From sequence record OQ921332.1: DNA of 64,000 nucleotides, one strand, 5' to 3'. The notes beneath the pieces are model-generated. The model searched no databases and was not told the DNA's origin. It saw only the letters and a program-made list of their open reading frames with translations. Positions 10,110-42,950 of the stretch are shown in pieces. The stretch's first letter is position 1. Each line of letters starts with the position of its first letter. Origin of the DNA: Escherichia phage vB_EcoP_PAS59. Both the position numbers and the translations under genes were made by a program.

Positions 10110-10185
10110 GCACCCTTAGCTCAATGGACAGAGCAGCGACCTTCTAAGTCGTTGGTTACAGGTTCGAATCCTGTAGGGTGCACCA
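10110..10185 (+). tRNA. tRNA-Arg (anticodon TCT)
   Basis: hand-folded cloverleaf: acceptor GCACCCT/AGGGTGC, D-arm GCTC..GAGC, anticodon loop CTTCTAA, T-arm ACAGG-TTCGAATC-CTGT, encoded CCA. Confidence 0.85.
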
Positions 10186-30828: not shown

Positions 30829-31018
30829 GGAACCCAAAGAGTGAAACTAAACCTACCTGAAGAATTACAAGCACATGCCATTATCGTTAGTGGCTGTGTG
30901 ATGGGTCTTGGTCAGACAAAGAAGATTGCTCATGACTTAGCAAAAGGTCAGTATAAATCTTTTATTGTTGTTCCTGCTACCCAGCGTCATATCAATCTGT
31001 TTATTAACAAGGAATAGA

Positions 31019-31294
31019 ATGAGTAAAGTAATTAAGTTTTATAGTGATCAGTGTGCTCCATGTAAAGCAATGGCTCCTACCTTTGAGAAGGTTGTTAAGG
31101 AGTTTGATGTAGAAGTGGAAGAGATTAACATCCTTGAAGGTGATGGTCGTGAACAAGCTGTTAAGTATGGTGTACGAAGTATCCCTGCTTTCGTTGTGCC
31201 TGACCGTAACAGTGGTGCACACTACAGCCTCTCCGGTATGCAGACTGAAGCAAACCTGAAAGCATTTTTGGATACAGCTCTAGGCAATAAATAA
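31019..31294 (+). CDS. thioredoxin
   Basis: internal ATG of ORF track 30965..31294 behind AAGGA; CAPCK active site; YGVRSIPAFVV and LKAFLDTALG align with E. coli TrxA. Confidence 0.75.
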   Translation: MSKVIKFYSDQCAPCKAMAPTFEKVVKEFDVEVEEINILEGDGREQAVKYGVRSIPAFVVPDRNSGAHYSLSGMQTEANLKAFLDTALGNK

Positions 31295-31309
31295 TAAGGG
31301 TATTCACGG

Positions 31310-31801
31310 ATGAATAATATTGACCCGTCAATAAAAGAAGCTCTTGATTACGACCCTTTGACTGGAGATTTCCGATGGGTTAAAACTTATGGAAAAGGAC
31401 ACAAAGGGTCTATAGCTGGTTCTGTAAATACCAATGGGTATTTGAGAATCGTTTATAAAGGTGCTAGATACTACGCTCATCGACTTGCTTACTGGTGGGA
31501 CACTGGATTGCTTCCTGAAGAAGTAGATCACATAGACCGCAACAGGATAAACAACAAAAGAGAGAATCTTAGGGGGACTACTAGATCAGGAAATGGCCTA
31601 AACAAAGTAGCTCAGAGTAATAATTTATCAACCGGAGTGATTGGAGTGACTGTCCATAGAAGGAAAAGTGGCTCTATTGCTTACCGGGCGGTATTTAAAT
31701 CTAAGCACATAGGACTCTTCTCAACCATAGAAGAAGCCTCTAGGGAATATAATAAAGTCAAGGAGACTTACATAAATGACAATCAAAGCTTCATTAATTG
31801 A
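31310..31801 (+). CDS. HNH homing endonuclease (HNH + AP2-like)
   Basis: ORF track; AHRLAYWWDTGLLPEEVDHIDRNRINNKRENLR; paralogous to 42242, 45226, 46618; overlaps ThyX start. Confidence 0.7.
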   Translation: MNNIDPSIKEALDYDPLTGDFRWVKTYGKGHKGSIAGSVNTNGYLRIVYKGARYYAHRLAYWWDTGLLPEEVDHIDRNRINNKRENLRGTTRSGNGLNKVAQSNNLSTGVIGVTVHRRKSGSIAYRAVFKSKHIGLFSTIEEASREYNKVKETYINDNQSFIN

Positions 31802-32423
31802 TAACTTCGGTTCAGATCTTACAGTAGTCAATGCTGCTCGTGTAACTATGGGGGTAGAAAGGGAAGAATTAAAAGAAAGTGACACTCGTCTAATAAATTT
31901 TCTAGCTCGGGAACGGCACGTAAGTCCTTTTCGTCACCCACAAGCGAGCTTCAGATGCGAAGCTCCTATAGCAATTGCACGACAGTTACAGAAGCATCAA
32001 GTTGGTTTTTCTTGGAACGAGATGAGTCGTAGATATAAAGATGGAGCAGTGGATATTTTCATACCTAAAGAAATCTTCTCCCGTCCAGATGATCTACATT
32101 CTGGTTCTGGAATACTTCTTGAAGGGGAGGAAGAGGCAAAAGCTTTAGCTTTGTTTAACTCTGCGTACGAGGCATCTCTTGCTAGTTATGACGAATTGAT
32201 TAAGTTCGTAGCTCCTGAACAAGCTAGATTTGTTTTACCTCAAGGTATGGTAACTACTTGGTACTGGACTGGTAGCTTGTATGGCTGGTTTGAATTGTGT
32301 CGTCAACGACTATCATCCCATGCTCAATATGAAGTTCGACTATTTGCTCAGTCATTAGATGAAGAGATGGCTAAACTCTATCCAATCTCATGGGCAGCTT
32401 TGAAGAAAACTTTGGAGAGTTAA
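31776..32423 (+). CDS. thyX: flavin-dependent thymidylate synthase (ThyX-like)
   Basis: ORF track; RBS AAGGAGA; RHPQASFR and RLSSHAQYEVR motifs. Confidence 0.6.
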   Translation: MTIKASLIDNFGSDLTVVNAARVTMGVEREELKESDTRLINFLARERHVSPFRHPQASFRCEAPIAIARQLQKHQVGFSWNEMSRRYKDGAVDIFIPKEIFSRPDDLHSGSGILLEGEEEAKALALFNSAYEASLASYDELIKFVAPEQARFVLPQGMVTTWYWTGSLYGWFELCRQRLSSHAQYEVRLFAQSLDEEMAKLYPISWAALKKTLES

Positions 32424-32568
32424 TTTTGGAAGAAAACGATGATGATGTTTTCTGTACACGGTGCGGTATGACAGTTGATGATGCTTACGACCCTACAGTA
32501 GAGATTTGTCCTTGCTGCGGAGTTTGTGAGTATTGTTGTAGTCACAATTCAGATGAATAGGTAAAACT

Positions 32569-32754
32569 GTGGACTTATACAAAACATGTAGCTTCTGTCA
32601 AAAGCAGAAGCTTCTTATCAACTTCAAGCTGAACGAGGAAACAGGTTTGGGTCATGCTTTTTGTCATGATTGCAGACACTACCTTGAACAGAAACAATAT
32701 ATAAACTGGTTGCATTATTTCAACCCCAGCATCTACGAGCACAAGGTTATCTAA
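32569..32754 (+). CDS. small Cys/His zinc-finger-like protein
   Basis: ORF track. Confidence 0.35.
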   Translation: MDLYKTCSFCQKQKLLINFKLNEETGLGHAFCHDCRHYLEQKQYINWLHYFNPSIYEHKVI

Positions 32755-33075
32755 ATGATCAACGATAGTACATTTAGGACTGGTAACGGAAATGAAATCA
32801 GTCCTGCTGAAGTGATTAAACGACACAGAACACAGATGCTTATCCACTCCTATTTGTATTATTGGTTGGATGACCCAATCTGGTCTGACGATAAGTGGCA
32901 ACAAGTGGCTGATGACTTAACCACCTTGCAAGAGATGTATCCTGAGCCTATTGGATTCTTCGATTCAGAGTTCAATGGATGGAATGGCTCCACTGGTATG
33001 CATCTTCCTCATGACGAGCGTATAGCTTGTATGGCTACTGAAGTATACCGTTTACATAAGGACAAATCAATCTGA
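32755..33075 (+). CDS. hypothetical protein
   Basis: ORF track. Confidence 0.45.
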   Translation: MINDSTFRTGNGNEISPAEVIKRHRTQMLIHSYLYYWLDDPIWSDDKWQQVADDLTTLQEMYPEPIGFFDSEFNGWNGSTGMHLPHDERIACMATEVYRLHKDKSI

Positions 33076-33257
33076 AATGTTTTAAATGTGAATCAACTCT
33101 TCTCCATTTGGACTCGAAAGTAATACGGGAGCTTGCCAAAGGCTCCCCGACTAAAGGGAAGAATAAGAAGTTTGTCGAAATTAAGGTTATAGGTATCCAT
33201 TGCTCAGAGTGTAAATCCTGTAGCTTCTTATATGAAGAACACGGAGGTAGGAAATGA
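33072..33257 (+). CDS. candidate zinc-ribbon protein with no canonical start codon (CTG 33072 or ATC 33066 proposed)
   Basis: open frame 33060-33257 encodes CFKC...CSECKSC; stop overlaps the PhoH ATG; AAGGA 9 nt upstream of CTG. Confidence 0.3.
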   Translation: MKCFKCESTLLHLDSKVIRELAKGSPTKGKNKKFVEIKVIGIHCSECKSCSFLYEEHGGRK

Positions 33258-33991
33258 GTCGTAGAGAATCTCGGAAAGCATCACGGAGAGAATTACGTCG
33301 TGAAGCTCTCGTCACCAAGAAAGGAAAGCGGGAATTTGAAGAAGTAGTTCTTGCTAAGCCGGTAGTACCTCAGAACCAATTCCAGAGTGAGCTGCTTGAT
33401 GCAATTAAAACCAAACAGGTTGTATTCACAGATGCTCCTGCTGGCTGTGGTAAGACATTCGTAATCACTTCTACAGTGATCGATGCTCTGAAGAGTGGGA
33501 AGATTGAGAAGATTATCCTAAGCCGACCTGCTGTTGGTATGGGTAACAGTCTAGGATTACTTCCCGGTGGGCTTCGTGAGAAATTTGAACCATACCTGAT
33601 GCCAATTGTTGATGTTATCACTCAGCGTTATGGTAAAGGCTTCTATGAGTGTCAAATTGGTAATGGTAACATTGAGTTTGTACCTCTGGAATACCTCCGT
33701 GGCCGTTCATTCAACGATGCTATTGTGATTGTTGATGAGTTCCAGAATACCACTCCTGATGAAGCATATTCAATTATGACTCGTCTTGGTGAAACCTCTC
33801 AGATGTTCTGTATGGGGGACACCAATCAGCACGATATGCGTGGTGAGAGTGGTCTAGATTGGGCTACTGATTTCATATACCGTCACAAATTGTTTGAATT
33901 TGCCGCTCTAGTAGATGGTGAATCGGATGATATTGTTCGTTCAGGTTTCTGTAAAGCTATTGTCAAAGCAATGGAATCTGAAAAATCATAA
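33254..33991 (+). CDS. phoH: PhoH-like ATPase
   Basis: ORF track; Walker A AGCGKTF; Walker B VIVDEFQN. Confidence 0.8.
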   Translation: MSRRESRKASRRELRREALVTKKGKREFEEVVLAKPVVPQNQFQSELLDAIKTKQVVFTDAPAGCGKTFVITSTVIDALKSGKIEKIILSRPAVGMGNSLGLLPGGLREKFEPYLMPIVDVITQRYGKGFYECQIGNGNIEFVPLEYLRGRSFNDAIVIVDEFQNTTPDEAYSIMTRLGETSQMFCMGDTNQHDMRGESGLDWATDFIYRHKLFEFAALVDGESDDIVRSGFCKAIVKAMESEKS

Positions 33992-33993
33992 AC

Positions 33994-34004
33994 ATAATGT
34001 ATAC
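33994..34004 (+). promoter_or_regulatory. candidate phage-sigma promoter motif ATAATGTATAC
   Basis: member of the recurring TAATGTATA motif set; ~32 nt upstream of ATG 34036. Confidence 0.4.
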
Positions 34005-34035
34005 TCCTTAGTGTACACTGATATATTAAGGAGTT

Positions 34036-34353
34036 ATGATGACCGATAAGGCGAAAAGAGATTATGCACAAGAACGAAGAACTGCAATCAAACGTGGGGA
34101 GACAGGTGTTGGTAGCAAGAGCGGAGATGCTCAGCGCCACCGTGCACGTCGCATCGTTGAAAAACGCGATGGAAAAGCTGCTGTCCGAGGTAAAGATGTT
34201 GGACACAAACGATCAATCAAGTCGGGAGGTTCTAATGCGTCAAGTAACTTACGTGTTGAATCAGTCTCTCGAAATCGCTCGAACGGCGGCAAAAGTGGAG
34301 ATCGTGCTGGAAAATCAGCAGGCGGTCGCAAAGGAGCTTTAAGCTCAAGCTAA
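34036..34353 (+). CDS. highly basic Lys/Arg/Gly/Ser-rich protein (an alternative helical ORF exists in another frame, 34064..34342)
   Basis: ORF track; RBS AAGGAG before ATG 34036. Confidence 0.4.
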   Translation: MMTDKAKRDYAQERRTAIKRGETGVGSKSGDAQRHRARRIVEKRDGKAAVRGKDVGHKRSIKSGGSNASSNLRVESVSRNRSNGGKSGDRAGKSAGGRKGALSSS

Positions 34354-34357
34354 TATA

Positions 34358-34388
34358 AGGCTACCCATTTCGGGTGGCCTTTTCTTTT
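34358..34388 (+). terminator. rho-independent terminator
   Basis: AGGCTACCC-loop-GGGTGGCCT followed by TTTTCTTTT. Confidence 0.6.
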
Positions 34389-34409
34389 ATGTAACCTAAG
34401 GTAATAAAT

Positions 34410-34661
34410 ATGTCTAAAGTAACTTATATCACTGTAACTGATTTCCTTCCTTCTCTGAACACAACTGAGAGTTATACTTTTCCTGTAGAAAATGTTACAA
34501 GCTCTGTTGAGATGATTCAGTTTAACAAAACAACAGCTCGTACTAATGTAACCCTTCGTGGCCCTGATGGCAAGTTCATCTCCTTCCGTGATAAGGGTGT
34601 TCCTAAGCGTATTGCTAAATCTATTGAAAATCTGAAACCTTTCCCCAACTTTGGTGCATAA
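34410..34661 (+). CDS. small protein (tandem paralog 1; KTARTNV...NLKPFP family)
   Basis: ORF track. Confidence 0.45.
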   Translation: MSKVTYITVTDFLPSLNTTESYTFPVENVTSSVEMIQFNKTTARTNVTLRGPDGKFISFRDKGVPKRIAKSIENLKPFPNFGA

Positions 34662-34662
34662 T

Positions 34663-34920
34663 ATGAAGATTAGCTTAATCCAAATTCGTGATCATCTCTT
34701 TAATGGTGACGCTCAGACTCATGACTACAAGGTTAATCAAGGACAACACCCTACCAATCACCTGATTGGAGGGATTTCTTTATTGCCTAATAAAACAGCA
34801 CGGACTAATGTAATGATTCGTGGTAAGGATGGTAAATTCCTCTCTTATCGTGACCCTGAAATCTGTGCTATTGTTCGTACAGCCATGAACAACCTAAAAC
34901 CATTCCCGACAGTGGAGTAA
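34663..34920 (+). CDS. small protein (tandem paralog 2)
   Basis: internal ATG of ORF track 34651..34920. Confidence 0.45.
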   Translation: MKISLIQIRDHLFNGDAQTHDYKVNQGQHPTNHLIGGISLLPNKTARTNVMIRGKDGKFLSYRDPEICAIVRTAMNNLKPFPTVE

Positions 34921-34923
34921 GTT

Positions 34924-35274
34924 ATGCCAGTACCTCAACGCCTAGAACGTCACTGCGTTCTCAAATGGGACAATATTCATGACAACCTCTCTAGTCAAGA
35001 GTTTCGTCAGTTTATTGAATTGACAGCGAAGATTAACCGAAACCGACCAGCTCGAAATTATGTGGTGGTTAGTGACAAGTATCCAGAGCTGTATGAGCAG
35101 GTGTGGGGTATGAAACTTGCACAAGTTCAGAGGAACAGTAACGAACGGAGAGAAGCTCGTAGACAGAGAGCAGAAGATATTCCAGCAGTCTTTTATGTGG
35201 ATGAAGCGGAATCCTACGAACAGTTAGATATTGTTGAGGATAACCAAGCGTTCACTGATTTAATATACCGATAA
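34924..35274 (+). CDS. hypothetical protein
   Basis: ORF track. Confidence 0.45.
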   Translation: MPVPQRLERHCVLKWDNIHDNLSSQEFRQFIELTAKINRNRPARNYVVVSDKYPELYEQVWGMKLAQVQRNSNERREARRQRAEDIPAVFYVDEAESYEQLDIVEDNQAFTDLIYR

Positions 35275-41876: not shown

Positions 41877-41900
41877 AGCCACCTTCGGGTGGCTTTTTTC
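41877..41900 (+). terminator. rho-independent terminator (overlaps the GTG/ATG region of the next gene)
   Basis: AGCCACC-ttcg-GGTGGCT followed by TTTTTTC. Confidence 0.5.
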
Positions 41901-41912
41901 GTTGGAGTTAAA

Positions 41913-42254
41913 ATGGAAAAGCTTCAAAACAATATAGGTTTTTTAATCTTCACAGCTCTGGTTTTCTTTGGTGGTGTCAAGTTTGAGCAATACAGAAGTG
42001 ATAGTAATGCTCTTGACCATGAGAAGAAACAGCAAGAGATTGAGGTTGAGAGAGCTAAGGCTGCTGATGAAGTGGCTCAGAAAGTTCTGACTGGTTTATC
42101 TAACTGGAAGAAGAACACGGAAACTATTTACAAAGAGATGCATTATGAAAAGACTAAGCCAGTTTTTTACAATGTGTGTGCTAGTGATGAGTATGTAGGA
42201 CTTTTCAATGAACGACAGCAACAAGCAGCGGAGGCACTGAAATTAAAGAATTAG
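41913..42254 (+). CDS. i-spanin-like protein (N-terminal TM helix plus periplasmic coiled coil), putative
   Basis: internal ATG of ORF track 41889..42254; its C-terminal GLFNERQQQAA is repeated at protein level at 42743-42775. Confidence 0.4.
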   Translation: MEKLQNNIGFLIFTALVFFGGVKFEQYRSDSNALDHEKKQQEIEVERAKAADEVAQKVLTGLSNWKKNTETIYKEMHYEKTKPVFYNVCASDEYVGLFNERQQQAAEALKLKN

Positions 42255-42736
42255 TTAAATATCTATCTTACAATGAGGTTTCTGGTCTTCTCTGCTGGAA
42301 ACAGTCTGAGGATAAGAGCGCTCAGTGGAATTCAAGATTCGCTGGAAAGGTGGCAGGTTGTAAAGCCACAGATGGCTATACAGTGATTACCTATCAATAT
42401 AAACAGTACAAAGCTCATAGAATTGCTTGGTATATCAAAACTGGAGAGATTCCTGATTTTCAAATAGACCATAAAGATTTAGACAAATCTAATAATTCTT
42501 GGAGCAATCTAAGAAGAGCAACACCTGTCCTTAATAATGCCAACAAAATAGTTCAAAAGAACTCTTTAACTGGAATAAAAGGTGTAGGGTACAGGTCGGA
42601 TATTAACAAATGGAGTGCTCGCATCGGATATCAAAACAAAGTAATTTGGCTTGGTTATCACAGCACTCAAGATGGTGCAGAAAATGCTTACAAAGAAAAA
42701 GCAAAAGAGTTGTTTGGTGATTTTTCTCGCTTCTAG
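42242..42736 (+). CDS. HNH homing endonuclease; start proposed at ATT 42242
   Basis: ORF track gives 42350..42736, but the conserved N-terminal region (KELVKYLSYNEVSGLLCWK, aligning with LKRLLKYDPNSGQFTWK of 45226) lies upstream in frame with no ATG/GTG/TTG; GGAGG 7 nt before the ATT. Confidence 0.55.
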   Translation: MKELVKYLSYNEVSGLLCWKQSEDKSAQWNSRFAGKVAGCKATDGYTVITYQYKQYKAHRIAWYIKTGEIPDFQIDHKDLDKSNNSWSNLRRATPVLNNANKIVQKNSLTGIKGVGYRSDINKWSARIGYQNKVIWLGYHSTQDGAENAYKEKAKELFGDFSRF

Positions 42737-42950
42737 TTTGATGGCTTGTTCAACGAGCGACAACAGCAGGCAGCTAATGCCCTTACCAACAAACCTAAAA
42801 GCTGAATGTGATGTAGACCTCCCTTTACTTCAGAGTGGACAGGGAGTAGCACTTGCAACAACACTCGAGTGGTATCAGGACAATTATACAACCTGTGCCG
42901 CTAACCACAACGGTTTGCTTAAAGCTCTCAAGGAGAGAGGAATACAATGA
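42672..42950 (+). CDS. o-spanin-like lipoprotein, putative
   Basis: internal ATG of ORF track 42651..42950; KKKQK n-region, hydrophobic core, LMAC lipobox-like site; overlaps the remnant i-spanin 3' end in another frame. Confidence 0.4.
   Translation: MVQKMLTKKKQKSCLVIFLASSLMACSTSDNSRQLMPLPTNLKAECDVDLPLLQSGQGVALATTLEWYQDNYTTCAANHNGLLKALKERGIQ

Follow-up and report, generated by a model that had tools for sequence, protein, structure and literature searches.

A putative CTG-initiated zinc-ribbon gene in the gap upstream of phoH in Escherichia phage vB_EcoP_PAS59

We consider it probable that the apparent gap between the Nlig-Ia gene and phoH in Escherichia phage vB_EcoP_PAS59 is a gene in its own right, one that encodes a 61-residue zinc ribbon with four cysteines, starts at the CTG codon at position 33072, and would be helped to start by a Shine-Dalgarno (SD) element and by reinitiation of ribosomes that have just finished the gene upstream. 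The gap is coding, and its start position is homologous to that of the corresponding gene in related phages; that the CTG itself is decoded as the start is something we infer from the sequence comparisons set out below. The window, that is, the whole 64,000-nucleotide stretch analysed here (record OQ921332.1), belongs to a phiEco32-like podophage of the Gordonclarkvirinae. Over positions 32400-33700 it is 97.8% identical to Escherichia phage OliverMaurmann_Bas86 (Bas86 below), 95-97% identical to ECBP2, EK010, 4E8, NC-B, IME267 and others, ∼88% identical to Bas88, TH42, TH43 and TH34, and ∼74% identical to phiEco32, SU7, SU10 and NJ01. The features of the locus are as follows.

31776-32423, + strand: thyX
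32390-32560, + strand: first small Cys-rich ORF, 56 aa, CxxC...CPCCGVCEYCC, PHROG 16989 ("membrane protein")
32569-32754, + strand: second small Cys-rich ORF, 61 aa, CxxC...CxxC, PHROG 15951
32755-33075, + strand: Nlig-Ia gene, 106 aa, Pfam PF22745 (E 1e-33), PHROG 6466, TGA at 33073-75
33050-33093, + strand: predicted local hairpin, ∼-9 kcal/mol, in which the SD region pairs with 33078-33083 and the CTG lies in the loop
33057-33062, + strand: Shine-Dalgarno-like TAAGGA, 9 nt 5' of the CTG and within the upstream gene
33072-33074, + strand: inferred initiation codon CTG, aligned with the ATG or GTG start of all other lineages
33073-33075, + strand: TGA stop of the Nlig-Ia gene, in a 4-nt CTGA overlap (33072-33075) with the CTG
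33072-33257, + strand: zinc-ribbon gene, 61 codons plus stop, product (M)KCFKCESTLL...EEHGGRK
33254-33991, + strand: phoH-like ATPase gene, with PF02562 matches on homologous products

The genes on either side are well preserved, with dN/dS values against Bas88 of 0.01 for the Nlig-Ia gene and 0.08 for phoH. The Nlig-Ia product consists of a stand-alone DNA-ligase-like N-terminal NAD+-binding domain and has no adenylation domain; it is nevertheless labelled "DNA ligase" in databases. The 61-aa ORF at 32569-32754 gives weak Elf1/Lar-like zinc-ribbon matches, and together with the ORF at 32390-32560 and the gene described here it makes three small zinc-binding proteins within ∼900 bp. A promoter and terminator scan of 31000-35000 returned nothing beyond shuffled expectation except a terminator-like hairpin at 34357-34381, which sits 3' of the gene downstream of phoH. 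A search of 32000-34500 against Rfam (E <= 1) gave two chance-level matches outside the zinc-ribbon ORF and nothing else.

The first-pass annotation had described a 178-bp gap before phoH that is entirely open in one frame, and we find the same. The upstream gene ends with the TGA at 33073-75, phoH begins with the ATG at 33254, and the frame 33060-33257 is open behind a TAA at 33057-59, with the translation GQINLKCFKCESTLLHLDSKVIRELAKGSPTKGKNKKFVEIKVIGIHCSECKSCSFLYEEHGGRK running up to its stop. The TGA of this frame (33255-57) overlaps the phoH ATG (33254-56) as ATGA (33254-57), so that the two genes are tightly packed, again as first described. phoH has its own GGAGG 6 nt 5' of its ATG at 33254 and hence need not depend on translation of the zinc ribbon. 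An open frame of 66 codons is expected by chance at the local base composition with P ∼0.015; much more telling is the conservation of the frame in 106 phage records, which were recovered by tblastn with the 65-residue translation at identities from 100% down to 44%, the lowest being those of Salmonella phages 7-11, SE131 and PKM.Hi.22.6.

The protein matches the PHROG 14369 profile with E 6.1e-25 over its full length (residues 1-61 of a 61-position profile) and phrog_34669 with E 5e-16. The gene is the orthologue of phiEco32 phi32_61 (gp61; YP_001671806.1; PHROG 14369/34669, "hypothetical protein"), whose product is likewise 61 aa long and 57-59% identical. The family consists of small zinc-ribbon proteins from phiEco32-like and 7-11-like phages. 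The two share the four cysteines, the ELAKGSPTKGKNK loop, and a site just 5' of phoH with an ATGA overlap. They differ at the other end, where phi32_61 begins with ATG in a 14-nt, +1 overlap with the Nlig-Ia gene and the window gene has CTG as its putative start, in a 4-nt CTGA overlap in the +2 relation. Homologues drawn from a 5.8-billion-protein database fall into 16 cluster representatives, all of them stand-alone proteins of 55-69 aa, a range into which the window protein falls, at 61 aa, if CTG 33072 is its start. C3, C6, C44, C47, E20, L21, S25, P26, G29, K30 and Y54 are invariant in the 16 representatives. The loop ELxKGSPxxGKNK is also invariant in the family, and the window protein has both this loop and the four invariant cysteines (CxxC...CxxC). 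Because the first CxxC is invariant, it must be translated. The zinc ribbon that had been proposed from the cysteine spacing is thus a real coding sequence with four family-wide cysteines; CFKC...CSEC, with C3, C6, C44 and C47, is kept in the relatives, but the last cysteine of the proposed CSECKSC, C50, is not conserved.

Searches for a function gave little. A profile search of 1.84 billion representatives yielded only five proteins, one of them a spurious Sushi-repeat protein, and since it adds almost nothing, the family is confined to these phages and offers no functional lead. Pfam has no family for the protein (best match, Zn-ribbon_GIR1, E 0.96), and Foldseek returned no match better than E 0.85. 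The AlphaFold2 model, built from the 16-sequence alignment, is confident (pLDDT 84.8) and predicts an antiparallel sheet of three strands (11-21, 34-44 and 50-56). The two CxxC knuckles come together in it, and a long hairpin carries the invariant basic loop KGSPxxGKNK at its tip. In the model the zinc-ribbon fold bears a weak resemblance to NrdR, ZPR1 and TFIIS. Unlike those proteins and Rpb9, the window protein has no ATP-cone or other additional domain and no sequence relationship with them, the likeness being one of fold. The predicted fold, with an invariant basic loop at the tip of a β-hairpin, suggests a nucleic-acid- or protein-binding module.

The pattern of substitution is that expected of a translated gene. 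Between the window and Bas88, both of which carry the CTG, there are 11.8 synonymous and 6.2 nonsynonymous differences over 39 and 144 sites, giving a dN/dS of 0.11 (Fisher P = 1.4e-5); the two remaining frames of this DNA give ratios of 1.55 and 0.85. The two comparisons that the first-pass annotation had put forward, conservation of the frame in relatives and its dN/dS, are both in keeping with a gene. Six distinct alleles occur in the CTG clade. Eighteen of their codons vary, 10 of the 18 only synonymously, and the amino acid replacements fall where the family also varies. Within codons 1-13 all three variable codons (Ser8, Thr9 and Leu13) vary synonymously, through four changes, and purifying selection thus covers the part of the frame upstream of TTG 33108 as well. 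These data bear on the view that the start codon was recently lost and that the frame is an untranslated relic with its decay still ahead, for which one could cite the great weakness of CTG as a start and the annotations of ECBP2, EK010 and Bas88, which leave the gap empty. We regard such a relic as highly improbable, given that the constraint (P ∼1e-5) is seen between two sublineages that both already have the CTG, that the six alleles contain no stops or indels, and that replacements are restricted to positions that vary in the family.

The position of the start is conserved even where the codon is not. Homologues in every other lineage begin M/V-(K/R/A)-C-x-x-C, and in a survey of 43 loci the codon aligned with CTG 33072 is ATG in phiEco32, SU7, 7-11, the Logan contig L020, L033 and two soil/plant metagenome contigs, and GTG in KBNP1711, the NJ01/Paul-type phages, PKM.Hi.22.6 and L031. 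The start thus keeps its place, with ATG, GTG or CTG at a single aligned codon, and what varies is the first base alone (A, G or C). A sequencing error can be discounted, since 16 phage records, which come from laboratories in Korea, China, Iran, Germany, Switzerland and the USA, share the 61-nt junction 33050-33110 with 100% identity. CTG also occurs in Bas88, TH42, TH43 and TH34, as well as in an assembly contig of Shigella sonnei and in three contigs from metagenomes. Counting phages alone, at least 16 independent isolates carry it, and the sublineage concerned comprises an ECBP2/Bas86 group and a Bas88/TH43 group. Scans of IMG/VR and metagenomes gave few further sequences of the CTG clade, and a pattern scan of genome contigs gave none.

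The frame had been said to lack any ATG, GTG or TTG. This is not correct as it stands, for the frame does have a TTG at 33108, from which an ORF of 49 aa runs. The narrower statement, that a full-length zinc ribbon has no canonical start, does hold: the TTG lies 3' of the first CxxC, and no canonical start preserves the conserved N-terminus of the window protein. A protein of 49 residues that begins at this TTG and dispenses with the first CxxC would have the merit of a canonical start codon, and the ORF 33108-33257 is what is annotated in Bas86. We nevertheless find this start very unlikely. TTG 33108-33110 (Leu13) is CTG in Bas88, TH42, TH43 and TH34 and CTA in two metagenome contigs, so that the codon is replaced in two sublineages while the leucine is always kept, and it aligns with an internal Leu or Ile of the family. 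Moreover, the sequence 5' of it (CTTCTCCAT) contains no SD, its product would be without two of the four invariant zinc ligands, and codons 1-13, which make up the 5' part of the frame, change only synonymously. TTG 33108 cannot be the conserved start, although a minor truncated product may be made from it in this phage.

The frame of Bas88 narrows the choice further. It contains no ATG, GTG or TTG anywhere, so that translation must enter 5' of codon 8, in a stretch with just two near-cognate codons, CTG 33072 and ATC 33066. Both had been named as candidate starts, with the AAGGA at 33058-62 placed exactly 9 nt 5' of the CTG, and these positions are as described. The two candidates have fared differently. 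The CTG aligns codon for codon with the ATG or GTG of the homologues. The ATC, in frame and conserved in the clade, would add two residues (M-N-L-KCFKC), but it lies only 3 nt 3' of the SD, and the Nlig codons AAA TCA, which overlap it, account for its conservation. In addition, the codon that follows it is the site of the only substitution in the stretch 5' of the CTG, an A>T at 33069 in Bas88 that is synonymous in the Nlig frame and replaces Asn by Tyr in the zinc-ribbon frame, and homologues in most lineages have no residues at the added positions. Taken together, these points make initiation at the ATC extremely unlikely. Translation most likely starts at CTG 33072, and the N-terminal peptide would then be (f)MKCFKCESTLLHLDSK, or KCFK... 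after removal of the Met.

The zinc-ribbon frame is in the -1 (+2) relation to the upstream gene, as originally noted ((33072-32755) mod 3 = 2), and it is open from 13 nt before the upstream stop. Together with the hairpin predicted around the junction, this makes it conceivable that ribosomes undergo a programmed -1 frameshift shortly before they finish the Nlig-Ia gene, with a fusion protein of ∼165 residues as its product. We give this alternative almost no credence. The upstream gene contains no slippery heptamer (X XXY YYZ) over its whole length, 33058-33075 (AAG GAC AAA TCA ATC TGA) is not slippery, and the predicted hairpin surrounds the site of the would-be shift instead of lying 3' of it. 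The relation between the two genes is also not a fixed one: phiEco32 has them overlapping by 14 nt in the +1 relation, and the gene 5' of the zinc ribbon is unrelated in Paul, 7-11, PKM and L020, where the zinc-ribbon gene has a start of its own. No database homologue (all 55-69 aa) is fused, and the substitution at 33069 is nonsynonymous in the zinc-ribbon frame.

Immediately after the CTG, the zinc-ribbon codons AAA TGT TTT AAA TGT GAA contain two out-of-frame mini-ORFs (ATG TTT TAA and ATG TGA; 33077-33091, + strand), which are probably incidental. The first of them invites another route into the frame, in which ribosomes start at the out-of-frame ATG 33077 and make a prfB-like +1 shift on UUU-UAA (33080-85) to yield MFKCESTLL...; on ATG TTT TAA A, tRNA-Phe can indeed re-pair on UUU at +1 before the stop and so enter the zinc-ribbon frame. 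Such a product would lose the invariant Cys3, however. The SD lies 14 nt from ATG 33077, no SD-like element occurs in 33070-33079, ∼3 nt before the shift site, and homologues with ordinary starts carry no prfB-like device. ATG 33077 simply arises where the Lys and Cys codons AAA TGT meet, as it does in 7-11, and we hold the shift to be exceedingly improbable.

For initiation at the CTG, the surroundings are favorable. The duplex of TAAGGA with the anti-SD has a predicted energy of -5.9 kcal/mol, the second strongest among the 10 junction types of the family. In every lineage the zinc-ribbon gene is packed against the gene 5' of it, whatever that gene may be. The junction is a GTGA overlap in KBNP1711, equivalent to the CTGA of the window, a 1-nt TAATG overlap in L020 and a 14-nt overlap in phiEco32; in 7-11 and PKM there is a spacer of 3-8 nt. 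Termination-reinitiation at 4-nt overlaps has been demonstrated in E. coli (Huber et al. 2019, PMC6728339), and like the ATGA and GTGA pairs of that study, the window pair shares its TG with the upstream TGA, has its SD inside the upstream gene, and belongs to a co-directional operon. It departs from them in its CTGA overlap, which makes the restart codon a non-canonical one. The TAAGGA and the CTGA overlap are what favor termination-reinitiation here.

The codon itself is a poor initiator, CUG in E. coli reporters reaching 1-2% of AUG (Hecht et al., bioRxiv 10.1101/063800), and output of the zinc ribbon could therefore be very low. That survey of 64 codons has CUG in one class with AUU, AUC and AUA. 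By analogy with those reporters, the expected effect of the CTG is strongly reduced initiation. The only tRNA gene in the window, a tRNA-Arg(TCT) at 10110-10185 (+ strand) that is also present in other phiEco32-like phages, leaves the phage with no tRNA of its own able to decode CUG as an initiator. Near-cognate AUU starts are found in the infC and pcnB genes of E. coli. The CTG resembles these in being one base from AUG where relatives are canonical and in having a good SD 5' of it, but unlike infC, the gene shows no evident autoregulatory logic of the kind seen in IF3 control.

We propose that an ancestral ATG or GTG start became CTG at 33072 in this phiEco32-like sublineage. The initiator tRNA would still begin at the CUG, giving an N-terminal Met, and the weak start would be helped by the TAAGGA 9 nt 5' of it, which would anchor ribosomes at the junction. 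The Nlig-Ia gene is the likely donor of terminating ribosomes; those that end it on the overlapping UGA would reinitiate on the spot and would form the main supply for the CUG. Zinc-ribbon output would accordingly be low and dependent on the upstream gene, while phoH would retain its own strong SD. Both the contribution of reinitiation and the low level of expression are suggested by the arrangement of the sequence. Ribosomes finishing the upstream gene might also open the hairpin at 33050-33093, although any part of this structure in coupling is conjectural: its z-score is only -1.8, and its stems are invariant among relatives and so provide no covariation.

A second ORF in the window may start in a comparable way. 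An HNH/AP2-type homing-endonuclease ORF is open over 42212-42736 (+ strand), and its first canonical start, GTG 42350, comes 46 codons in, with the conserved N-terminal part of the protein (IKELVKYLSY...) lying 5' of it. An ATT at 42242 is situated 7 nt 3' of a GGAGG (42230-34), and at this position the EK010 copy, which is 73% identical, carries an ATC preceded by AGAGGG. Against Bas86, dN/dS is 0.17 over 42245-42349, and the annotations of SU7, Bas86 and EK010 put the start at three separate internal codons. A second near-cognate start (AUU/AUC) in this phage is the probable reading. On either side of the endonuclease stands a copy of the end of the i-spanin (Rz-like) gene (41889-42254 and ∼42737-42805, + strand), with the ends GLFNERQQQAAEALKLKN on the 5' side and GLFNERQQQAANALTNKPKS on the 3' side, each followed by a stop, and GLFNERQQQAA present on both sides. 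In Bas86 the spanin is annotated as two joined pieces with the endonuclease between them, and many relatives, among them 101114UKE3, 4E8 and Bas88, do not have the insertion. It would seem that a free-standing homing endonuclease inserted here and took the place of the 3' end of the gene it targets.

Both near-cognate initiation and stop/start coupling are well established, and no new mechanism is indicated; weak starts such as this CTG are uncommon, but the kind is known. The literature searched makes no mention of the zinc-ribbon gene or of CTGA overlaps. Two records are already annotated from the CTG, phage 4E8 (WJJ57341.1) and S. sonnei (GE321_00610), both as 61-aa proteins beginning MKCFKC... 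with exactly the limits 33072-33257. Other records leave the gap empty (ECBP2, EK010 and Bas88) or carry the 49-aa ORF from the TTG (Bas86).

One may ask whether the CTG is itself a selected setting, which would tie synthesis strictly to termination of the Nlig-Ia gene at low stoichiometry and would represent a recurring expression-limiting device in this phage group. We regard this extension as doubtful, though worth stating. A single C>A or C>T at 33072 would yield ATG or TTG without altering the product of the upstream gene, and neither has occurred, an absence that is not statistically meaningful at this divergence; the CTG clade is shallow (dS 0.3-0.7) and its junction invariant, so that selection on the C of the CTG is indistinguishable from a lack of time. 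If the idea is right, the CTG would fix the ratio of zinc ribbon to Nlig-Ia at a low value, and the ATT at 42242 of the HNH ORF would be a second candidate device of this kind.

More immediately, the finding amounts to a correction of annotation, as most genomes of the group leave the gap empty or call the truncated 49-aa ORF. It also brings to light a natural series of ATG, GTG and CTG at one start site in related coliphages with a tractable host, which can serve as a test case for CUG initiation over an overlapping upstream stop and for the strength of an SD set against a weak codon.
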